A DNA stretch of 64,000 bases from an uncultured Planctomycetales bacterium (GTDB lineage Bacteria; Omnitrophota; Gorgyraeia; Gygaellales; Profunditerraquicolaceae). The first letter of the stretch is position 1. Each line of letters begins with the position of its first letter. Shown here in pieces: positions 5,304 through 60,082 of the stretch. Under the pieces are notes generated by a model, which worked only from the letters and a program-made list of their open reading frames with translations, did no database searches and was not told the origin of the DNA. Location of the stretch: assembly GCA_964603585.1 (NCBI GenBank), contig CAZRVK010000001.1, positions 438,541 to 502,540 of the forward strand, written 5' to 3'. The translations under genes were made by a program, and so were the position numbers.

Positions 5304-8300
5304 TAGCCTCCGCGATATTAAGCTTTTCCTCCAACTTTGCCCCCTCTAAAATGCGTTTATATTCAAGCGGCATGACTCTGACAAATCTCTTAAGTTCAAC
5401 GTTCAGGGCATCCAGGATTTTCTTGGCTTTTGTACTTCTGGTATATTTGACATGATGGCTAAGCAGATGATATATTGTATCCCGGTCATCTGCTTTAATA
5501 TGCTCCAATTCCACCATATCCAGGTTACACCTTTCTTTAAAACTGGCATCTTCATCATAAACATAAGCTATGCCACCAGACATGCCTGCGGCAAAATTCC
5601 TTCCAGTCCGGCCAAGGATTATTACTCTACCCCCGGTCATATACTCACAGCCATGGTCTCCGACGCCCTCGACTACCGCATATAACCCTGAATTACGAAC
5701 GCAAAACCTTTCTCCTGCGATCCCGTTTATATAGGCCTCGCCGGATATTGCCCCATAAAAGGAGGTGTTACCGGCAATAATGTTGTCGTCGGCTTTATAA
5801 TTTATTCGACTATCCGGATAAACTATGATCTTTCCTCCTGAAATACCTTTTCCGATATAATCATTAGCCAAACCTTCCAATTCAAAAGTTATCCCTTTTG
5901 CCAGAAACGCGCCAAAACTCTGCCCGGCTATGCCTTTAAATTTAAAATACAGGGCATCTTCCAAAAGTACATTATCCCCGCACCTGCGACAAACCTCCCC
6001 GCTCAACAATGCACCGGCAGCCCTATTCGTATTATTGATATTCAATAAAGCCTTGACCGGCTCATTCTTCTGAAGGCAATTCTCCCATATTTGTATAAGT
6101 TTTCGGTCAAGGACATTATCTAAGCCACTATCTTGTTTTTCCTTGCAATAACGCCCGATATGCTCCGGAAGTTTGGGATTATAAAGTATCCGTGAGTAAT
6201 CGACGCCTTTAGCCTTTTCCGGAACGATCTTTCGGTTTAACTCCAACAGATCACATCTGCCGATCATCTCATTTACCGTCCTTAACCCAAGATCAGCCAT
6301 AATCTGGCGCAACTCTTGGGCTATAAAATGGAAGTAATTCACAATATATTCCGGCCTGCCCCGGAACCTTTTCTGTAAAATACTGTCTTGAGTGGCCACT
6401 CCCAGAGAACAATTATTTAAATGGCAGTGCCTTAACATCACGCAACCGATGACAACCAGGACCGCAGAACAAAAACCATACTCTTCTGCTCCAAGCAAGG
6501 CGGCAATTGCCACATCGCGTCCAGTACGCATCCCTCCGTCAGCTTGCAGGCGGACACGGGAGCGTAAATTATTAAGTAAAAGCGTCTGGTGCGTTTCTGC
6601 CAGGCCTAATTCCCAGGGAAGGCCGGCATATCGAATGGAACTTCTGGGTGATGCGCCTGTTCCCCCGTCTCCTCCGGAAATAAGGATCATATCCGCATGC
6701 CCTTTGGCAACTCCAGCGGCAACCGTTCCTACGCCAACTTCAGATACAAGTTTTACACTGACCCTGGCAACAGGATTGGCATTCTTTAGGTCAAATATCA
6801 GCTGTGCCAGGTCCTCGATGGAATATATATCATGGTGCGGAGGAGGAGAGATCAAAGTAACCCCTTGAGTGGTATACCGGGTACGGGCAATTATTTCACT
6901 GACCTTATGCCCAGGCAATTGCCCTCCCTCGCCAGGCTTAGCCCCTTGAGAGATCTTTATTTGTATCTCGTCGGCATTAACCAGATAATTTATCGTTACG
7001 CCAAACCTGCCAGAAGCAACCTGTTTGATCGCGCTCCGGCGGGAATCTCCATTCGGTAAACTGACGAACCTATTGGGATCCTCACCGCCCTCCCCAGTAT
7101 TGGATTTCCCACCAATACGGTTCATCGCAATAGCGATAGTCTCATGTGCGGCGCCGCTTATCGAACCAAAACTCATCGCCCCGGTTACAAAACGTTTTAA
7201 AATGCTGTGCACCGGCTCAACCTCATCGATAGGAACAGGTGTTATCTTCTTGCCGCCAGAGGCTGACCCGGAGAATTCAAGCAGGCTTCTTAAGGTAACT
7301 GGATTACTCGACTGGTCATTAATCAACCGGGCAAACTCCTTATATTTCTCATAATCACCACGGGAAGTAGCCTCTTGTAAAGCAGCAATACTCTCCGGCC
7401 GCCAAAGATGGAACTCCCCATCTTTCTTCCACTGATAAACCCCTCCGCTCGAAAGATAATCTGCGTCCGTGCTTCTTAGGGCATACGCCTGACGATGCCT
7501 TTCTAAAGTCTCTTCTACGATCCCTTCTAAAGATACCCCGCCGATCCTGGAAACCGTGCCGGTAAAATATCTGTCGATAAACTCATTATCTAAGCCCAAA
7601 GCCTCAAAAATCTGTGCGCCGCGATAACTCCTAAGGGTGGAAATACCCATTTTAGAAAGTATCTTCAATATCCCGTCGGTTATCGCCTTAATATAATTCT
7701 TTAAAGCCGTCTTGGGTTCCAGTTTGATTTCTTTTTGCCTGACCAGATATTCCACGGTTTCATAGGCAAGATAAGGATTGATACAATCAGCCCCATAACC
7801 GAAGAGCAGCGCAAAATGATGCACCTCTCTGGGCTCTGCACTCTCCACCACTAAAGCTACCTGTGAACGGACAGTTTTTCTTACTAAATACTGATGAATA
7901 GCACTGACCGCTAAAAGCGCCGGTAAAGCAACATTATCCTTATCTATACCGCGGTCGCTTAAGATTATAAAAGAATACCCTTGTTCAATAGCGTACTCGG
8001 ATTCAAAACAAACCCTATCCAGAGCTTGCACAAATCCTTCTTTACCGCTTAAAGCATCAAAAAAAGTATAGATCGTCTTGGTCTTAAAACTGTTTATACT
8101 GATATCCCGTATTTTTTCAAGGTCAGTATTGGTCAAAATCGGATTCCTTACTCTAAGTTTATGGCTATGCTTAGGGCTCTGTTCCAGGATATTCTTTTCC
8201 GGGCCGATGAAACTTTCTAAACTCATCACCAGTTTTTCTCTAATTGAATCTATGGGAGGATTAGTCACTTGAGCAAAAAGCTGGCGAAAATAACTATAAA

Positions 8301-12421: not shown

Positions 12422-12763
12422 TTATCCTATTGCTACCGGGCCGCGTTCTTCAGTACGTATACGCACGCATTCCAGAAGGTCTAAAACAAAGATCTTGCCA
12501 TCTCCGGTCTCTTGGGTCTTGGCCCCACTCACAACCGCTCGAATCGTCGGCTCTAAAAAACTGTCATTCACTGCGATCTCCAGCCTAATCTTGCGTAAAA
12601 GGTTACCCGTCTCTTTCGCCCCGCGATAGATCTCGGTTACCCCCATCTGCCGGCCATGCCCCAGCACCTCACTCACAGTGATAAGATTCACCTCTGCTTT
12701 ATATAATTCTTCTTTTACCGATTCTAATTTATCCGGTTGAATAATCGCTATAACTAATTTCAT
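12422..12763 (-). CDS. glnK: P-II nitrogen regulatory protein
   Basis: 113 aa. MKLVIAIIQPDKLESVKEEL and a T-loop region GHGRQMG. Lies directly downstream of amt. Confidence 0.85.
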   Translation of the reverse strand: MKLVIAIIQPDKLESVKEELYKAEVNLITVSEVLGHGRQMGVTEIYRGAKETGNLLRKIRLEIAVNDSFLEPTIRAVVSGAKTQETGDGKIFVLDLLECVRIRTEERGPVAIG

Positions 12764-12859
12764 TGAACACCTCCGCTTTTTATCTAATTAAATCATTTAA
12801 ACCAGCCGGAATCAGCAGAAATAACCCAGGATCACCCAAAGAATGTATAGCCTGCCGTA

Positions 12860-14089
12860 TTATTCCAAAACAGTGTATGCCCTTTCGCGATGCTGGGTAA
12901 GGTCCAAACCCATTAACTCGGACTTTTTATCTACCCTGACACCAATAAATAAATCAACTATCTTATATATCACGATCGTGATCACGCTCGTATAAACAAT
13001 GGTTATCCCTACCGCAGCTAACTGCACTAATAATTGTTTTGGATTGCCGAAAAACAGACCGTCCGCACCAGCCGCATTTACTGTTTTGGAGGCAAATAAC
13101 CCGGTTGCGATTGCACCCCAAATCCCGCCAATACAATGGACGCCAAAAGCATCAAGAGAATCATCGTATCCGAATTTAGGCTTAATTACTGTAACCGCAA
13201 TAAAACAAAAAACACTGACCAGCAAACCAATAATGACAGCCGGGACCACACTGACAAAACCTGCGGCAGGAGTGATCGCAACCAAACCGGCAACTGCGCC
13301 TGAACATAAACCGAATATCGTAGGCTTGCCATTATGATACCATTCAATCAATGCCCAGCTTAACCCGGCAGATGCTGCCGCGGTATTAGTAACTACAAAA
13401 GCGTTGACCGCCAACCCGTTTGCCGCAAGCGCACTGCCGGCATTGAAACCAAACCAGCCGAACCACAATAAACCTGTACCCAGGACTACGAAAGGCATAT
13501 TATGCGGAGTAGGCACATTCTTTTCTAAATTAGTCCGTTTGCCTAAAACAACTGCCGTTATAAGTGCGGCGATCCCGGCATTAATATGCACGACTGTGCC
13601 TCCGGCAAAATCTAAAGCCCCCCAATTACGCAGGAACCCTCCGATTGCCCATACCCAATGACAAAGCGGGGCATAAACAAAAGTTGCCCAAAGTAAAGTA
13701 AAAACAAGAAACGCCGAGAATTTCATCCGTTCGGCAAAAGCTCCAATGATCAAGGCCGGGGTGATGATCGCAAACATACATTGAAAGATCATGAACGCCT
13801 GATGCGGAATAGTTCCGGCATAATCCGGGTACGGCTCTAAACCTACCCCGGATAAACCTGCCCATGAAAACCCTCCCCAAAACCCTTTTCCCGGGGCAAA
13901 AGACAGGCTATATCCGATCAAAACCCAATGAATACTTAAGATACACATTACGATAAAACACTGCATCAAAACACTAAGGACGTTTTTTCTCCTGACCATA
14001 CCCCCATAAAAAAAAGCCAAAGCCGGGGTCATAAGCAGAACCAAAGCCGATGAAATTAAGACCCACGCCGTATCCCCTGAATTTATCAT
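12860..14089 (-). CDS. amt: ammonium transporter
   Basis: 409 aa multi-TM protein with Amt/MEP signatures (DFAGGTVVHINAG, GAFAERMKF). Confidence 0.9.
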   Translation of the reverse strand: MINSGDTAWVLISSALVLLMTPALAFFYGGMVRRKNVLSVLMQCFIVMCILSIHWVLIGYSLSFAPGKGFWGGFSWAGLSGVGLEPYPDYAGTIPHQAFMIFQCMFAIITPALIIGAFAERMKFSAFLVFTLLWATFVYAPLCHWVWAIGGFLRNWGALDFAGGTVVHINAGIAALITAVVLGKRTNLEKNVPTPHNMPFVVLGTGLLWFGWFGFNAGSALAANGLAVNAFVVTNTAAASAGLSWALIEWYHNGKPTIFGLCSGAVAGLVAITPAAGFVSVVPAVIIGLLVSVFCFIAVTVIKPKFGYDDSLDAFGVHCIGGIWGAIATGLFASKTVNAAGADGLFFGNPKQLLVQLAAVGITIVYTSVITIVIYKIVDLFIGVRVDKKSELMGLDLTQHRERAYTVLE

Positions 14090-16325: not shown

Positions 16326-16597
16326 TTGACGATAATTAGTGACGTATAGGTTTAATACCGGCCTTACCCCGGTAATGGCAAGGATTTAATTGTACTCCCC
16401 TCTATGCTGACTGTCTATATATATTTAGGATAAAATCAGCCTCAAAGATCATTATTTTAGGGTTGTATCTTGCTTAACTTATTTAATTACAGATACTTAA
16501 GAATAGCAACTTGATCGTCCAATAAAAACCATACATTCTGGCTTACTTGAAATCGATAACTTAGTGTGCTATATTTATATAGGAAATAGAGCTTACT

Positions 16598-16678
16598 GAT
16601 AAAGGCAAACTAGCAGCAATGCTGGGACGCAAAGCTTCCGGCCCAAGGTCTTGGGCAGCGGGGTTACCAAAGAAGCAA
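16598..16678 (+). ncRNA. c-di-GMP-I (GEMM) riboswitch
   Basis: AAAGGCAAAC, then a P2 hairpin AGCA-GCAA-UGCU with a GNRA loop, then GGGACGCAAAGCUUCCGGCC...GGCAGCGGGGUUACCAAAG. This is a near-consensus match to the Vc2-type aptamer. Confidence 0.72.
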
Positions 16679-35971: not shown

Positions 35972-36319
35972 AATCCCCTGTAATTTCCTAATATTTTAGA
36001 GTGATCTTACCATCATAAAACAACCTTTTCGAATGAACATAGCCTTAATACTTTCTTAAAGCAAAAAACCCAAAGCCTGCATTTTCTTGCAGGGCTTTGG
36101 GTTACTTTATAACAATTGCCCAAACCGGATATCCTTAATTCTCTTTTTACTCTTACTCCCCAAAGATACCTCCTTTTACAGGCATCTTGATCTATACTTT
36201 CATTTTCAGGTTGGCAGTTATATCACAGTAGCATCCCGGGAGCAAGTCATTATCCTGCCCAAAACCTTTTTTTTGATTATACTATCAAAAACCCGCACTG
36301 TAAAGCTAAAGTAAAAAAT

Positions 36320-36390
36320 AAAGGGGACGTTTCTATTTTTCTGGTGATGGTTGCATTTTGGGGCTTCAGAAAAATAGAAACGTCCCCTTT
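36320..36390 (-). terminator. palindromic element copy 1, acting as terminator of the amt2-glnK2 operon
   Basis: 21-bp arms AAAGGGGACGTTTCTATTTTT and AAAAATAGAAACGTCCCCTTT with a 29-nt loop, followed by a T-run on the minus strand. Flanked by CCCTTTATT direct repeats. Confidence 0.6.
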
Positions 36391-36413
36391 ATTCCCTTTA
36401 TTCCCCCTTTATT

Positions 36414-36755
36414 CTATACAGCGATATCGCCTTTTTCTCCGGTGCGGATCCTTATAGCATCATCTACAGGATAAACAAATATCTTGCCATCGCCAATTTC
36501 ACCGGTCCTGGCGGTTTTAGCTATAGAATTTACGACTTTATCGAAATCACTGTCCTTAACAATTATTTCGATTTTTACTTTCGGCAAAAAATTAACTTTG
36601 TATTCCCGGCCGCGGAACTGCTCAACCAAGCCTTTTTGCCGGCCATGCCCTTCAATATGCGTGATCATCATCCCGGGGCAGCAATGCAATGTTTCTAAAG
36701 CCTCGGTAACTCCTTCTAACCTTTCTACCCGAATAACTGCCTCTATTTTCTTCAT
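36414..36755 (-). CDS. glnK: P-II nitrogen regulatory protein (second copy)
   Basis: 113-aa P-II fold (MKKIEAVIRVERLEGV...GDGKIFVYPV). Downstream of amt2. Confidence 0.85.
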   Translation of the reverse strand: MKKIEAVIRVERLEGVTEALETLHCCPGMMITHIEGHGRQKGLVEQFRGREYKVNFLPKVKIEIIVKDSDFDKVVNSIAKTARTGEIGDGKIFVYPVDDAIRIRTGEKGDIAV

Positions 36756-36811
36756 TTTGCTCCTTCCTCCCCTCTGCCTGAAAGCGAAACAAGAAAAATC
36801 AGGTTAATGGG

Positions 36812-38179
36812 TCAATTTTGATTCGTTGTATAAAAATTCGGATAAGCCGGAGTTCCATGTTCAATAACATCCAGCCCTTTTAATTCTTCTTCCGGCGAAA
36901 CTCTGACACCAAAACATTTATCCATCAGCTTAAAGGTAATTAATCCCAGACTAAAAGCCCAAGCCACACAAACGGCCGCTCCAATCACTTGAGCGATTAA
37001 CTGCCCCCAACCTCCCCCGTAGAATAACCCTTTAATTAATGGCGCAGTAGTTGTCCCCAAGCCATATGTTCCGTCAGCAAAAAGCCCCACACTAATAAGG
37101 CCCCAGACACCATTTACAGCATGCACACTGACCGCACCAACCGGATCATCTACCTTCATTGCTTCCCAAAAATATACGCTTACAACTACCAAAACACCGG
37201 CTATCGCACCAATAACCACAGCTGCCCACGCCTCTACCCAGGCACAAGGCGCGGTAACGGCGACCAATCCTGCCAGACAACCGTTTAGCATCATCCCCAG
37301 ATCCCACTTCTTTGTCTTCATAAATACCAAAAGAATAGCAACCGCCGCTCCTGCTGCTGCTGCCAGATTAGTATTCACCGCAATAACCGCAATCCTTAAT
37401 TGATGCGCAGAAAATGTAGAGCCTGGATTAAAACCAAACCATCCAAACCATAATATGAATGTACCCAGTGCCGCAAGGGTTATACTATGCCCGGGGATAG
37501 CCTTTGATTTTCCGTCTTTGCCTATTTTCCCGAACCTCGGACCAAGGACAATAGCACCGGCTAAACCAACAAAACCCCCTATAGTATGCACGACTCCGGA
37601 TCCGGCAAAATCAACATGTCCTGCTCCAAAAGGAAGTTTAGAAAGCCATCCTCCGCCCCAAACCCAGTGACCAAATATAGGATAGATGATCGCCGAAACT
37701 GCAAGGCTATATAAAAAATACGCCTTGAATTTTAATCTTTCTGCAACTGCTCCGGAGACAATCGTTGCCGCGGTTCCGGCAAAAACCATCTGCCAAAAGA
37801 ACACGAGATACTTTCCTACATCATAATTTGCCCCGTGTAAGAACCAACCCGATGTGCCGATTATCCCTTTGTAGTCATTTCCCATCATAAAAGCAAAACC
37901 AACAGCCATAAAAACAAGTGAAGCGACAACGAAATCAATCGTGTTTTTAGCCATAAGGTTAGTCGCATTTTTTGCCCGGCAAAACCCGGCCTCAACCATC
38001 GCAAACCCTGCCTGCATAAAAAAAACCAGGAATCCACAAACCAACACCCATACATAATCAACCGGTGCCTGTGGATTTTGCGCCAGCGTTTCGGCGCCTC
38101 CAGGATCCTGGGCAAAGCAGACCCCGCTAACCCAGGCAATCACTGCAGTAAATAAGAATATGAATATTCTTAGAAACAT
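36812..38179 (-). CDS. amt: ammonium transporter (second copy, with signal peptide)
   Basis: 455 aa. Amt signatures (DFAGSGVVH, GAVAERLKF). Confidence 0.9.
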   Translation of the reverse strand: MFLRIFIFLFTAVIAWVSGVCFAQDPGGAETLAQNPQAPVDYVWVLVCGFLVFFMQAGFAMVEAGFCRAKNATNLMAKNTIDFVVASLVFMAVGFAFMMGNDYKGIIGTSGWFLHGANYDVGKYLVFFWQMVFAGTAATIVSGAVAERLKFKAYFLYSLAVSAIIYPIFGHWVWGGGWLSKLPFGAGHVDFAGSGVVHTIGGFVGLAGAIVLGPRFGKIGKDGKSKAIPGHSITLAALGTFILWFGWFGFNPGSTFSAHQLRIAVIAVNTNLAAAAGAAVAILLVFMKTKKWDLGMMLNGCLAGLVAVTAPCAWVEAWAAVVIGAIAGVLVVVSVYFWEAMKVDDPVGAVSVHAVNGVWGLISVGLFADGTYGLGTTTAPLIKGLFYGGGWGQLIAQVIGAAVCVAWAFSLGLITFKLMDKCFGVRVSPEEELKGLDVIEHGTPAYPNFYTTNQN

Positions 38180-39267: not shown

Positions 39268-40494
39268 TTACTTCTTCATATTACTGGCTAAAATAATTGC
39301 CTCGGCAATCTCACGCATGGGCTTACAGGTATCCATGCTTTTACGGTTGATCAAGCGATAAGCATCATCCTCATTTATCTTTAACTCCTTCATTAAGAAA
39401 CCCTTGGCCCGCTCAACCATCTTTCGCGTCTCTAACGCCTCTTTAACCCGTAATGTCTCTTCCATAAGTTTTGTATTCTCTACCGCCACAGCAGCCTGAT
39501 TTGCCACCATTTGCAATATATCGATTTCCTCCTGCGCGAAAGAATGAAGTTCTTTTGTGTATATATTAATAATACCTATTGCTTTATCTTTTACGACCAT
39601 CGGAACCGATAACATCGACGTAAGATTTTCTTTAATTGCCAAATCACGGTAATGGTATCTTTTTTCATCACGCACATCATAGATTACGATAGGTTTCCTG
39701 GTTTTAACCACCTCTCCGCTTAAGCTGGCATTAACTTTGATATTGGACTTCTTTTTATACTCCTCACTCAAGCTCTGGGTAGCTTTAATAACCAGTTCAT
39801 CCCCTTTTTGGTCCAAAAGCATAATAGAACATATCTTCGAATCAAGCATTTTAGCGGTAACAACCACAATAAGGTTTAAAATCTCATCCAGATACACCTG
39901 CGAAGTAATGGACTGGCTGACCTTGATCAAGCTATCAAACTGCAAAGCCTTCCTTCTTTTGTCCTCATACAACCGGGCGTTTACAATCACCCCTCCGGTT
40001 TGCTTGGCTATAATCGAAATTAAACTAACAGTATTGCCGGCATATTCATGCGGTTTTTTATGCTGGATATTGATAACCCCAATACAATCACCTTTGCAAA
40101 CAATCGGGACAGAAAGAAATGCTTCATATTTATCCTCCAGCAACACATCCAGGTTCTTGAAACGCGGGTCCAGATATGCCTTGTTATTGATAACAACCGG
40201 CTTATTTTCCTTAGCTACCCAGCCGGTAATCCCCTCTCCTATTTTAAGATTTACCCTGCCTAATTCTTTTTGATGCGGCATCTTTGAAGCCATAAGGACT
40301 AAATGCCGCTTTTTCTCATCAAATAAATAGATAAAAACAGAATCCGCATGAGTCATATCATTAACGACCTGAACCATCTCCCCAAGGATCAAGTTTAAAT
40401 CCAATGCGGAATTAGTAATTTCAACAATCCTTCTTAATATCTTGACTTCCTGCAGCGAAGTAATATTCAACGTCTTTCCTTTTGTCTTTTCCAT
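39268..40494 (-). CDS. tandem GAF domain + ANTAR RNA-binding antitermination regulator
   Basis: Two GAF folds. C-terminus RKMVERAKGFLMKELKINEDDAYRLINRKSMDTCKPMREIAEAII is an ANTAR domain. Confidence 0.75.
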   Translation of the reverse strand: MEKTKGKTLNITSLQEVKILRRIVEITNSALDLNLILGEMVQVVNDMTHADSVFIYLFDEKKRHLVLMASKMPHQKELGRVNLKIGEGITGWVAKENKPVVINNKAYLDPRFKNLDVLLEDKYEAFLSVPIVCKGDCIGVINIQHKKPHEYAGNTVSLISIIAKQTGGVIVNARLYEDKRRKALQFDSLIKVSQSITSQVYLDEILNLIVVVTAKMLDSKICSIMLLDQKGDELVIKATQSLSEEYKKKSNIKVNASLSGEVVKTRKPIVIYDVRDEKRYHYRDLAIKENLTSMLSVPMVVKDKAIGIINIYTKELHSFAQEEIDILQMVANQAAVAVENTKLMEETLRVKEALETRKMVERAKGFLMKELKINEDDAYRLINRKSMDTCKPMREIAEAIILASNMKK

Positions 40495-52462: not shown

Positions 52463-52497
52463 AAAAAAAACCATCCTGCAGCAAAACTGCAAGATGG
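52463..52497 (-). terminator. intrinsic terminator after the crcB-DUF190 operon
   Basis: On the minus strand, CCAUCUUGCAGuuuuGCUGCAGGAUGG is followed by UUUUUUUU. Confidence 0.6.
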
Positions 52498-52697
52498 CGG
52501 CCCGACCACCTTAACTTTCCTACCTCCAGGAATACCTGCGTATCCCCAGACCACTTATCTGTCGCAACTTAATATACCATAATCGAAGGAAAACGCAAAG
52601 TAATAGTGCTGACTCGCATACGTAGCCCAAAAGTTTCTTGCATGATCATATAAAATCTATAAGATTCCGGCCTTATCAGCCATTTGAATTAAAATAA

Positions 52698-53428: not shown

Positions 53429-53449
53429 AAACTGATACCCCCCTTTCTT

Positions 53450-53505
53450 TTGAGTAGGAGTTATCAGCCTGTTGAGGCGGTTATTGGCGAACCCCATCGC
53501 CAGTA
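53450..53505 (-). ncRNA. fluoride riboswitch (crcB motif)
   Basis: The minus-strand RNA reads GGCGAUGGGGUUCGCCAAUAACCGCCUCAACAGGCUGAUAACUCCUAC. This matches the consensus GGCGAUGG..UUCGCC, AAACCGCC and GGCUGAU..CCUAC blocks. Confidence 0.8.
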
Positions 53506-53547
53506 TAAAGATATTGTATCAGATAAAACAAGTTCTTTTAAGTGAAA

Positions 53548-57873: not shown

Positions 57874-59042
57874 TTGACTATCGTTCCAAAAATCATCCCG
57901 CTTATCGTCGCCATAATGACCACAAGGCCAACATACACAACAGTTTTTTTTGTACCGATAACTTCACGAATAACCAGCATGCTCGGCAAGCTCAAAGCAG
58001 GCCCAGCCAGAAGAAGCGCCAGCGCTGGCCCCTTCCCCATACCAGATCCGATCAAACCCTGTAAAATAGGCACTTCTGTAAGCGTGGCGAAATACATGAA
58101 CGCCGCTACGATCGATGAAAAAAAGTTCGCCCTGAAAGAATTGCCTCCGACCATCGCCTCCACCCAGCTGGAAGGAATAACGCCTTCATGGCCAACCCTA
58201 CCCAAGAGAAACCCTGATATCAAAACCCCACCTAAAAGAAGCGGCAATATCTGTAGGGCGAATCCCCATGAAGCGGATGTCCACTCTTTAAGTTCATCTT
58301 TCTTAAACCAATTAACGAGCGTCAACCCTAAAACTACCAGGAAAAATCCGGTAATCCACCATTTAGATGCATAGATCAAACTCCAAATGCCGGTATCGCC
58401 CTCTATCGGCTTGGCCCAATTAGCAAACACGAGTATTGCTACCATCGAAAAGAAATAAACAATATCTTTCCATAACGGACGGCTTGCCTTAACCTCTCCA
58501 AATTGAACATCTCCGTTAGCGTGGCGGGCACGCTCCTCCTTTAGGAAAATCAAATGCATGAATAACCCTATAACAATACTAAAAATGACTGCCCCAATAG
58601 CCCTGCCTAAGCCTAACTGCCAGCCAAGGATCCGGGCTGTCAGGATAATCGCTAAAACATTGATGGCCGGTCCTGAATATAGGAATGCAATCGCGGGACC
58701 CAGCCCAGCGCCTCTCTTATAAATCCCCGAGAATAACGGCAGAACCGTACATGAACAAACAGCAAGAATAGTCCCGGACACTGAAGCCACGCTGTAAGAA
58801 AGAAACTTGTTTGCCTTGGCTCCAAAATACTTCATCACCGACGCTTGGCTGACGAACACAGATATCGCTCCGGCTATAAAGAACGCCGGAACAAGACACA
58901 AAAGAACATGTTCCCGGGCGTACCATTTAACAAGCGCTAATGCCTCAAAGAGCGCGTTAGTAAACCGCAGATTCTCAATTGGTAAGTAAAAACACGCCAA
59001 GAATACCGCTACAACGTATAATAACTTCTTCCACTCGTTCAT
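57870..59042 (-). CDS. arsP: DUF318 permease, ArsP-like organoarsenical efflux permease
   Basis: Multi-TM protein with the TM Cys motif AVCSCTVLP (compare ArsP TPFCSCSxxP). Embedded in the ars operon. Confidence 0.7.
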   Translation of the reverse strand: MNEWKKLLYVVAVFLACFYLPIENLRFTNALFEALALVKWYAREHVLLCLVPAFFIAGAISVFVSQASVMKYFGAKANKFLSYSVASVSGTILAVCSCTVLPLFSGIYKRGAGLGPAIAFLYSGPAINVLAIILTARILGWQLGLGRAIGAVIFSIVIGLFMHLIFLKEERARHANGDVQFGEVKASRPLWKDIVYFFSMVAILVFANWAKPIEGDTGIWSLIYASKWWITGFFLVVLGLTLVNWFKKDELKEWTSASWGFALQILPLLLGGVLISGFLLGRVGHEGVIPSSWVEAMVGGNSFRANFFSSIVAAFMYFATLTEVPILQGLIGSGMGKGPALALLLAGPALSLPSMLVIREVIGTKKTVVYVGLVVIMATISGMIFGTIVK

Positions 59043-59347
59043 TTCTTAACCATCCTTCCTCCAATAGTACAGCACCCGCCCTCGATACGGATCGCCTTAA
59101 CATTAACCAATGCTTCCGTTACCTTCTTGCAGGCTGAAGCAACTATCCGCGAGAATGTCGGCCGGGATATTTTCATCACCTTTGCGGCATCCTTCTGTTT
59201 CATTCCCTCAAGGCAAGCCAAACGCATCGCTTCAAACTCATCAATGCTTAAAACCACGCCATCAAGTTCATTTAATGGTTTGCACTTAGGGCGAAAACAT
59301 CTCTCACCCGGCAAACATTTAACCCACCTGGTTTTTTTCGGCCTCAT
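59039..59347 (-). CDS. DUF134 (UPF0251) putative DNA-binding protein, first gene of the ars operon
   Basis: WVKCLPGERCFRPKC N-terminal Cys motifs, an HTH core AAKVMKISRPTFSRIV and a C-terminal AIRIEGGCC. Paralog of 725..1075. Overlaps arsP by 4 bp. Confidence 0.6.
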   Translation of the reverse strand: MRPKKTRWVKCLPGERCFRPKCKPLNELDGVVLSIDEFEAMRLACLEGMKQKDAAKVMKISRPTFSRIVASACKKVTEALVNVKAIRIEGGCCTIGGRMVKK

Positions 59348-59384: not shown

Positions 59385-59412
59385 ATTATATCACGAATTC
59401 GTGCCGGGTCAA
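59385..59412 (-). promoter_or_regulatory. sigma70 promoter of the ars operon with an embedded 12-bp palindrome (candidate operator)
   Basis: On the minus strand, TTGACC, then cgg-CACGAATTCGTG-a as a 16-nt spacer, then TATAAT. The perfect palindrome CACGAATTCGTG (59392..59403) sits between the -35 and -10 elements. Confidence 0.55.
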
Positions 59413-59469: not shown

Positions 59470-59556
59470 CAGGGAAAAAAGGGGGAAAAAAGGGGACGTT
59501 TCGAAAAAAGGGGACGTTTCTATTTTTTTTAGAAAAATAGAAACGTCCCCTTTATT
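59470..59556. repeat. palindromic element copy 2 (same 21-bp arms as 36320..36390) with an extra partial arm and AAAAGGGG direct repeats
   Basis: GGGAAAAAAGGGGGAAAAAAGGGGACGTTTCgAAAAAAGGGGACGTTTCTATTTTTtttagAAAAATAGAAACGTCCCCTTT. The arms are identical to those at locus 1. Confidence 0.7.
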
Positions 59557-59567
59557 GCAGGCACACC

Positions 59568-60016
59568 GGCACAATCTGGATGCTTGCGTTAAAAAGTTGG
59601 ACGCGCTTTTCAATATGCGCTTAAACGAAGAGATCAGCCCAGAGGAATATGCTCGGAAGAAAGACGATCTGACGAAGGCAAAGCAGAAATATGAATGATT
59701 GATCGCGGATACGCAAGACCGCGTTGAAACATGGCTCAAACGGGCTGAAGATATGTTTACATTCGCCCAAACCGCCCAGAAACGGTTCGACACGGGCACT
59801 TTGGAGGACAAGCGGTATGTTCTCTCGTGTCTGGGCACAAAACTCGTCTTACACGGCAAGAAACTGCAATTTGAGCAGGAAAAGTGCCTTGCCATGTTCG
59901 AATGTGTGGCACCTGACGTACAAAGCCTCCACAACAGGTTAGAACCGACGCAACTCGTTGATTCTATGACCAGTTGGGAGGCTTTATATGCTCAAAATAA
60001 AAAATGGGGTGGGTAA
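59568..60016 (+). pseudogene. large serine recombinase C-terminal remnant with in-frame TGA
   Basis: Translation gives LDALFNMRLNEEISPEEYARKKDDLTKAKQKYE, then a stop, then LIADTQDRVETWLKRAE...KRYVLSCLGTKLVLHGKKLQFE. This has the coiled-coil and C-terminal beta-strand pattern of large serine recombinases. There is no catalytic N-domain and an in-frame TGA at 59696..59698. Confidence 0.5.
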
Positions 60017-60082
60017 CGGGGATCGAACCCGCAAACCTTCTGAGCCACAGTCAGACGCTCTAACCAGTTGAGCTATACCCAC
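60004..60082 (-). tRNA. tRNA-His (anticodon GTG)
   Basis: Cloverleaf with G-1:C73 and acceptor GTGGGTA/TACCCAC. D-arm GCUC-AACUGGUUA-GAGC. Anticodon loop CUGUGGC. T-arm GCGGG-UUCGAUC-CCCGU. CCA is encoded. Confidence 0.85.

Follow-up and report, generated by a model that had tools for sequence, protein, structure and literature searches.

Dispersed head-to-head palindromes of an Omnitrophota genome resemble the terminal units of TIRYT transposase genes

Two long palindromes in the window (the whole 64,000-nucleotide stretch of DNA analysed here) belong to a repeat family that is far larger than the original prediction supposed. We put at roughly 0.75 the probability that these elements are REPIN/MITE-like, non-autonomous derivatives of a TIRYT transposase system, built as head-to-head dimers of the terminal units of TIRtrons. 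They are probably parasitic or domesticated mobile DNA, and they may also act as transcription stops.

Results

The 21-mer AAAGGGGACGTTTCTATTTTT matches the window exactly four times, at 36320-36340 (+), 36370-36390 (-), 59507-59527 (+) and 59533-59553 (-), and had no match in any of 100 dinucleotide-preserving shuffles of the window. These copies form two inverted pairs, in agreement with the original prediction that an identical palindrome occurs at two loci. The 21-mers lie where they had been placed, but the arms extend beyond the 21 bp then given: at locus 1 the arms (36317-36343 and 36367-36393) are 27 nt long and 100% complementary around a 23-nt loop, and at locus 2 (59504-59527 and 59533-59556) they are 24 nt long with one mismatch around a 5-nt loop. 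The two elements are composed as follows.

36317..36343: left arm of locus 1, a 'G-form' unit with the A-rich word AATAAA, the core GGGGACGTTTC at 36323-36333 and the inner word TATTTTTCTG
36344..36366: loop or spacer of locus 1, 23 nt, unrelated to the loop of locus 2
36367..36393: right arm of locus 1, an inverted 'C-form' unit with the core complement GAAACGTCCCC at 36377-36387
36394..36413: the flanking word twice more, as CCCTTTATT and CCCCCTTTATT, reaching the glnK stop codon at 36414-36416
59472..59491: mirror-image word repeats of locus 2, GGGAAAAAAGGGGGAAAAAA
59486..59502, plus strand: extra cut-off unit of locus 2, AAAAAAGGGGACGTTTC, with its core at 59492-59502, ending exactly at ...GTTTC
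59504..59527: left arm of locus 2, a G-form unit with its core at 59510-59520
59528..59532: loop of locus 2, 5 nt
59533..59556: right arm of locus 2, a C-form unit with the core complement at 59540-59550

The extra partial arm previously noticed at locus 2 is real and carries the core GGGGACGTTTC, and the direct repeats described there are the G/A-rich words to the left of the palindrome. At locus 1, repeats of the CCCTTTATT type occupy the right side (36384-36413) as a mirror image of the left-side repeats of locus 2, indicating that the two loci are mutually inverted. The '++-' layout of locus 2 recurs in two other loci (L144 and L166). A search of the window with a profile built from 469 related units gave exactly five units, with no additional degenerate ones. 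Outside the element, the flanks of locus 1 and locus 2 do not align, which rules out segmental duplication and contradicts a single duplicated segment as the source of both copies, a possibility raised together with the original prediction. The features that adjoin the two elements are these.

36414..36755, minus strand: P-II (glnK-like) gene, with 26 nt between its stop codon and the nearest core
36276..36304, minus strand: sigma-70-like promoter match (11/12), immediately downstream of element 1 on the minus strand
59385..59412, minus strand: sigma-70-like promoter match (11/12, with TG), between element 2 and the DUF134 gene (59039-59347)
59555..60016, plus strand: decayed ORF with an in-frame stop, abutting the end of element 2 and running into tRNA-His (60005-60082, minus strand)

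The C-terminal third of the integrase profile phrog_95 matches the decayed ORF weakly (E = 0.0015), and a tblastn search of plasmids with this integrase-like fragment found nothing; the fragment, near tRNA-His, is probably the remnant of an integrated element. Since element 2 abuts the start of the fragment and the fragment abuts tRNA-His, the palindrome of locus 2 could be read as an att-like recombination site of a decayed integrase, with locus 1 as a second such site. The weakness of the integrase match, the lack of any such neighbour at locus 1 and the hundreds of related copies that lie beside housekeeping genes with no recombinase nearby make this reading hardly credible.

Several other features of the window were recorded. 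A terminator-like hairpin with a T-run lies at 36093-36076, 3' of the promoter-like site 36304-36276 (-), and the two could mark the start and end of a short transcript, about 200 nt long, in the gap between glnK and the PAS-domain gene. About 24 kb away (12484-13612 versus 36473-37612) lies another amt/glnK-like pair that has diverged from the first, the pairs containing repeat families D2, D4 and D17 with 71-84% identity over short stretches. The gene for a GAF-ANTAR regulator at about 39268-40494 (-), equivalent to 6262-7488 of the matching Logan contig L001, adjoins the porin-amt-glnK cluster, a position that suggests RNA-level antitermination control of nitrogen genes. Matches at or above the Rfam gathering score were a c-di-GMP-I-GGC riboswitch at 16595-16672 (+), a fluoride riboswitch at 53448-53510 (-) and an nhaA-I RNA at 52492-52553 (-).

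The extent of the family was determined by scanning for the core palindrome, defined as GGGGACGTTTC, 15-45 free bases and GAAACGTCCCC, in one genome per species. Matches were found in more than 115 stretches of species-representative genomes, where by our own calculation about one is expected in random sequence, and the window's exact 21-mer arm was found in at least 120 metagenome stretches; since both scans accept only exact matches, the abundance and the invariance of the core are partly shaped by the search method. These numbers bear out the proposal that the palindromes form a dispersed REP/MITE-like family rather than independent terminators. Among the matches listed, Clostridia and other Bacillota, Omnitrophota and Aminicenantes supply most hosts of the core palindrome; Planctomycetales and Actinomycetota supply a few, and one host is a Steroidobacteraceae MAG. 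The listed matches include the isolates Butyrivibrio sp. NC2007 and Desulfocucumis palustris, and dimers per single assembly reach about 10, 9, 6, 6 and 6 among them. The core-palindrome pattern had no match in viral contigs, and a phage origin was dropped for that reason. Rfam searches, at the gathering threshold for the window and under permissive settings for the elements, gave at the elements only generic hairpin noise far below family cutoffs, and the core string was encountered in the searchable literature only as unrelated chance primers. Hammerhead-like motifs, parS, transcription-factor boxes, CsrA sites, CRISPR repeats and mimicry of the tmRNA 5' end were all dropped on inspection of the sequence.

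Every copy follows one plan, in which a lineage-specific word of 6-9 nt is followed by the 11-nt core GGGGACGTTTC and then by the complement of the word, so that the core of a single unit can be displayed in the loop of a small hairpin. The best stem formed by the flanking words averages 5.3 nt, compared with 2.9 nt after the outer flank is shuffled, and single units, of which many are present among the matches listed, have the same layout. Most elements consist of two units head to head, with their GGGG ends outside, giving a long palindrome. In the metagenome loci listed, which were selected on one arm only, adjacent cores no more than 150 nt apart are arranged +- in 47 cases, ++ in 6, -- in 6 and -+ in none. 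Loop length varies from 5 to about 100 nt and loop sequence from copy to copy, yet loops are recognisably related within one genome (for example in the Omnitrophota genome JAZDMX), indicating that whole dimers were copied and that their loops then diverged. Further copies of the flanking word often lie beyond the palindrome, and both window loci show this. When the pattern-selected copies are set aside, the genome loci listed hold about 41 further exact copies of the core; one-mismatch cores number 31 in the same set against 13 expected by chance, and two-mismatch variants show no excess.

Extra units cut off at ...GTTTC occur at 59502 in the window and also in L011, L023, L039, L060, L144 and L166. 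An insert of about 151 nt resembling a MITE lies within a core at L081 5148-5298; its ends are GAGACTGCTGAAAAA and GAAGCCACTGAAAAAG, and it is flanked by direct copies of GGACGTTTC, a 9-bp duplication. The end sequence of this insert also abuts cores in L002 (from 6215) and L094 (near 100), in a second MAG, and the insert looks like an insertion sequence that targets the core. Because the cut-off units and the MITE-like insert duplicating GGACGTTTC end at the same point, strand cleavage would be placed just 3' of ...GTTTC. A tandem array at L033 7674-7864 has four direct units with a 43-45 nt period followed by one inverted unit.

The elements are found mainly after genes. Between tandem genes, the median distance is 18 nt from the stop codon of the upstream gene to the element and 92 nt from the element to the start of the following gene among the matches listed, which also include 20 convergent contexts against 6 divergent ones. 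Single units are oriented one way relative to genes in 27 cases and the other way in 21, not a strong strand preference. Clustering the ORFs of the genome loci yielded no recurrent neighbour, the largest cluster covering 11 of the 115 fetched loci, and the genes between close element pairs, judged by eye from their sequences, look like housekeeping genes or otherwise unremarkable ones. In an Acetatifactor MAG (L108 4100-5450), elements occupy nearly every gap between small genes, with 8 cores in 8 kb and one element directly upstream of a ribosome-binding site.

One comparison captures the presence and absence of an element at an orthologous site. In the Omnitrophota MAG MFD03726, a 79-nt region (L009:5502-5580) holds a dimer whose flanks match both another Omnitrophota MAG (L092) and a metagenome contig (L122), in each of which about 3 nt separate the two flank matches. 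The element, about 76 nt including its A/T-rich flanks, sits exactly between the pgk stop and the tpiA start, about 10 nt before the tpiA start codon, and at both empty sites pgk and tpiA nearly abut. No target-site duplication or clear insertion rule is evident at this filled and empty site. A different kind of change is seen at L016 1126-1212, where an outer pair with the variant core GGGGACGCTTC encloses a dimer; in L136 (312-346) the orthologous position is arranged differently, indicating rapid local rearrangement. Both comparisons show turnover at fixed genomic positions and do not in themselves identify the enzyme that causes it.

Candidate enzymes were found beside the units in related loci. 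In a Eubacteriales MAG (L081), a 275-aa ORF about 420 nt from a unit scored 49 bits with Pfam Y1_Tnp (cutoff 23), and its best NCBIfam model was the REP-associated tyrosine transposase, at 70.6 bits versus a cutoff of 80. Utilizing this protein as a tblastn query, homologues about 29-39% identical to the Clostridial protein were detected in 13 more loci, giving 14 among the matches listed, all of them selected by the DNA motif; about 12 are distinct and two have internal stops. The Y1 gene lies between a + core and a - core in 7 of the 14 loci, on either gene strand, and a G-form unit lies about 80-160 nt upstream of the gene start. At the 3' ends of the genes in six loci (L171, L229, L209, L183, L123 and L225), the TAG stop codon overlaps the first base of the right-hand C-form unit, the junction reading ...AAAAATAG/AAACGTCCCC. 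In MAG CAYYRM, the unit beside the transposase gene carries the word GGACAA/TTGTCC, as dispersed copies do (L035, L081). The original prediction had called for a search for target-site duplications or associated transposase genes; the transposase half of that search succeeded, with units bracketing a Y1 gene in related loci, while the duplication half did not at the filled and empty site. The bracketed gene and the filled and empty pgk-tpiA site add to the support for a dispersed family.

All 14 proteins contain the motifs NH[VILT]H and (W/F)Q(G/N)R, together with Y[IVA]E.NP or YIHRNP. Reference sequences were taken from the alignment in Additional file 5 of Di Nocera et al. 2013 (PMC3733652). 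By BLASTP the proteins scored 63-145 bits against six typical TIRYTs (gbm2474, dau2153, pca3049, rba2408, hch1378 and aba2776) and 24-61 bits against the canonical RAYTs E. coli b228, pfs3939 and sml2816. NCBIfam NF047646, the equivalog model for REP-associated tyrosine transposases in the strict sense, was the best model for all seven proteins tested, six of them at 61-73 bits (cutoff 80) and one at 87, and the NCBIfam IS200 model gave 19-25 bits versus a cutoff of 55. By these comparisons the motif-linked proteins are a far better match to TIRYTs (TnpA-Y1 subclass 2.1, group 1 RAYT) than to canonical RAYTs. Pfam detected Y1_Tnp only, and no C-terminal HTH, in the seven proteins tested (E <= 0.001-0.01). 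In the six loci with the stop overlap the proteins end in RGRP(R/K)(K/T), an AT-hook-like tail; a C-terminal GRP(R/K)K is common to most complete proteins and to many published TIRYTs. A PDB sequence search with a TIRYT-like protein gave no match, and no TIRYT gene was found within the 64-kb window. In the 5' leaders of several TIRYT genes (L209 1000-1065, L183 920-987, L063 7510-7572 and L143), an inverted repeat (cctcctttcacgtct...agacgtaaaaggagg) covers the Shine-Dalgarno sequence, which suggests translational control of the transposase.

The nature of the neighbouring enzyme bears on whether the elements might instead be MITEs derived from a conventional DDE insertion sequence, bounded by terminal inverted repeats and flanked by a target-site duplication. 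Their inverted terminal units around a variable interior would fit such an origin, as would the unrelated MITE-like insert with its 9-bp duplication inside some cores. Among the matches listed, however, the sole recurrent neighbour is a Y1/HUH enzyme and no DDE transposase recurs, nor is a duplication visible at the filled pgk-tpiA site, and a DDE origin appears very improbable.

A more serious alternative is that the motif is a host-selected signal (protein-binding, RNA-stability or uptake-like) that spread by selection, recombination or convergence rather than by transposition, the transposase genes being merely flanked by an abundant motif or having adopted it. Neisseria DUS pairs, uptake signals that often form terminators when paired, provide a precedent. 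Such a signal would account for a core that is almost constant between phyla although protein identity to the Clostridial one is only about 29-39%, for the tight placement of elements 3' of stop codons, and for the many single units and the majority of loci with no transposase nearby. It accounts poorly for the precise geometry of gene and units (the stop overlap and the roughly similar upstream distance), which recurs with differing proteins, or for TIRYT genes making up about 1% of ORFs in the motif-selected loci (an estimate, among the matches listed), far above the expectation if each genome held one or two of them. Loops that resemble one another within a genome suggest that dimers were copied whole, and a DUS-like signal would be expected inside genes and in both relative orientations, whereas -+ pairs are absent. 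On balance we consider a host-selected signal unlikely, and derivation from a TIRYT system remains the preferred reading.

The original prediction also held that both elements act as minus-strand intrinsic terminators. On that strand the hairpin of locus 1 is followed by UUUAUUUUUU and that of locus 2 by UUUUUU, both runs being weaker on the plus strand; the function itself is a prediction, and a simple consensus terminator scan called neither window element, because stems of 24-27 bp and one 23-nt loop far exceed the usual. On either strand, both hairpins are very stable, with energies of -34 to -50 kcal/mol for about 120 nt (z-scores -5.5 to -9). Past each hairpin on the minus strand comes a promoter-like site (11/12), directly adjacent at locus 1 and no more than about 100 nt away at locus 2. 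This layout of hairpin then promoter at both loci would suit an insulating terminator. Element 1 is predicted to end the amt-glnK unit. Upstream of element 2 on the minus strand the first gene is tRNA-His, at a distance of about 450 nt; the element would keep transcription that comes from there across the decayed integrase-like fragment out of the DUF134-ArsP genes. The A/T-worded elements of the window's lineage are predicted to look like bidirectional terminators.

In the family as a whole, T-runs follow the hairpin in 74% of Omnitrophota copies and 14% of Bacillota copies among the matches listed, and the position of the L009 copy implies that tpiA is probably read through the hairpin. The scarcity of T-runs in Bacillota, together with this copy before tpiA, indicates that termination is not the defining trait of the family; it is likely to be a by-product of the A/T-rich words used in this lineage. 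What the window elements and most Omnitrophota copies have in common with intrinsic terminators is an A-run before and a T-run after a hairpin just past a stop codon. They differ in stems 2-4 times the usual length, in loops of up to 100 nt and in a sequence common to unrelated genes and phyla, and most Bacillota copies have no T-runs. That the two palindromes are ordinary intrinsic terminators, identical by chance or local duplication and with neither a wider family nor mobility, is suggested by the U-rich runs on the minus strand (UUUAUUUUUU and UUUUUU) and the promoter-like sites that follow at both loci. It is contradicted by the hundreds of copies elsewhere with the same arms and by the unrelated flanks of the two loci, and was rejected on these grounds. 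Stems and a loop outside the usual form, uncalled by the terminator scan, Bacillota relatives mostly lacking T-runs and a member about 10 nt before a start codon also argue against it, leaving it with scarcely any likelihood.

Discussion

The architecture of the elements, their placement after genes and the geometry of the units around TIRYT genes are all consistent with dimers of TIRtron terminal units that depend on a transposase acting in trans. In the mechanism that we favour, two units in single-stranded DNA would pair into a long hairpin, or each would fold into a small hairpin displaying the core. A TIRYT encoded elsewhere in the genome would recognise the core and cut and rejoin the strand through its tyrosine, and whole dimers would thereby be copied or moved. 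TIRYTs are not known to move DNA. The enzymatic steps proposed here (single-stranded DNA, folded unit and tyrosine) are modelled on IS200/IS605 TnpA and E. coli TnpA-REP (Messing et al. 2012, PMC3479197; summarised in Quentin et al. 2018, PMC6006769). Dimer copies would survive chiefly just 3' of stop codons. In this lineage the A-run and T-run words would give a transcribed dimer the shape of a bidirectional intrinsic terminator, and each of the two window dimers separates the end of a minus-strand transcription unit from the promoter-like site that follows.

The closest known relatives are TIRtrons. These are TIRYT genes flanked by inverted repeats, most of which share GGGGWSAS, and the repeats also occur as moderately abundant dispersed copies in dimers or clusters (Di Nocera, De Gregorio and Rocco 2013, PMC3733652). 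The equivalents of TIRtrons and TIRYTs in other classifications are TnpA-Y1 subclass 2.1 (PMC6006769) and group 1 RAYTs (PMC5581495). For subclass 2.1, the motifs NHVH/NH[YF]H, W[EQ]/FQ and YIELNP/Y[IV]HLNP are tabulated, C-terminal HTH domains (Bac_DnaA_C, HTH_23 or HTH_28) are reported and no REP-like sequences were found around the genes (Quentin et al. 2018, PMC6006769, motifs in Table 1). Group 1 RAYTs are described as having the widest host range, including Clostridia, with some signs of horizontal transfer and with flanking 16-mers present in only about 12 copies (Bertels et al. 2017, PMC5581495).

The system described here shares with TIRtrons a Y1/HUH gene flanked by GGGG-led inverted repeats, dispersed singles, dimers and clusters, the NHVH and YIELNP motifs, the GRP(R/K)K tail and wide, patchy hosts that include Clostridia. 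It differs in several respects. The core GGGGACGT... fits the published GGGGWSAS at 6 of 8 positions (GGGGWS, with the last two not matching); the Bacillota flanking words GGGGACAC and GGGGACAT match GGGGWSAS fully. One 11-mer is used here in at least 5-6 phyla; the published relatives use somewhat different GGGG-led motifs, and Omnitrophota and Aminicenantes are among the hosts here and are not among the hosts named in those available accounts. Dimers here are always head to head, and an HTH was not detected by Pfam.

Similarity to REPIN-RAYT systems (Bertels and Rainey 2011, PMC3116915; E. coli TnpA-REP, Messing et al. 2012, PMC3479197) extends to two inverted units forming a long hairpin, an extragenic position mostly 3' of genes, multiple copies and a cognate Y1 gene bracketed by repeats. 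The conserved sequence of the present elements, in contrast to that of REPINs, is internal to the arm, or occupies the loop when a unit forms its own small hairpin, and the proteins are much nearer to TIRYTs than to RAYT groups 2 and 3. Since the foot of the units lacks the 5' GT[AG]G tetranucleotide that canonical REPs have, the elements are not filed as classical REPs, although they are REPIN-like. With IS200/IS605 they share the Y1/HUH catalytic core (Pfam Y1_Tnp) and hairpins in single-stranded DNA. IS200/IS605 elements, which often carry tnpB, have ends that are not inverted repeats, unlike the units described here. What goes beyond PMC3733652, PMC6006769 and PMC5581495 is one 11-nt core common to several phyla; otherwise the elements are best filed with the TIRYT-associated kind of repeat.

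A bolder form of the preferred reading would make all copies one REPIN-like population, whose invariant core GGGGACGTTTC is the recognition and cutting site of TIRYT (3' of ...GTTTC) and which spread with TIRYT across at least 5-6 phyla. We advance this tentatively, as a possibility with less than even odds. Group 1 RAYTs (TIRYTs) are the largest and least understood RAYT branch, so far with no clear substrate, and would, if this is true, gain a defined DNA partner. REPIN-RAYT systems are discussed as long-lived, vertically inherited replicators; the same proposal would describe a REPIN-type system kept by horizontal transfer rather than by strict vertical descent.

For annotation, long hairpins after genes in MAGs of this kind should be recorded as repeat elements and not presumed to be gene-specific terminators. 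The hosts of TIRYT-linked repeats include the poorly studied phyla Omnitrophota and Aminicenantes. With these data the TIRYT branch acquires a concrete DNA partner that is short, highly conserved and clearly arranged around the gene, and a direct biochemical test, combining the enzyme with an oligonucleotide of about 35 nt, becomes possible.
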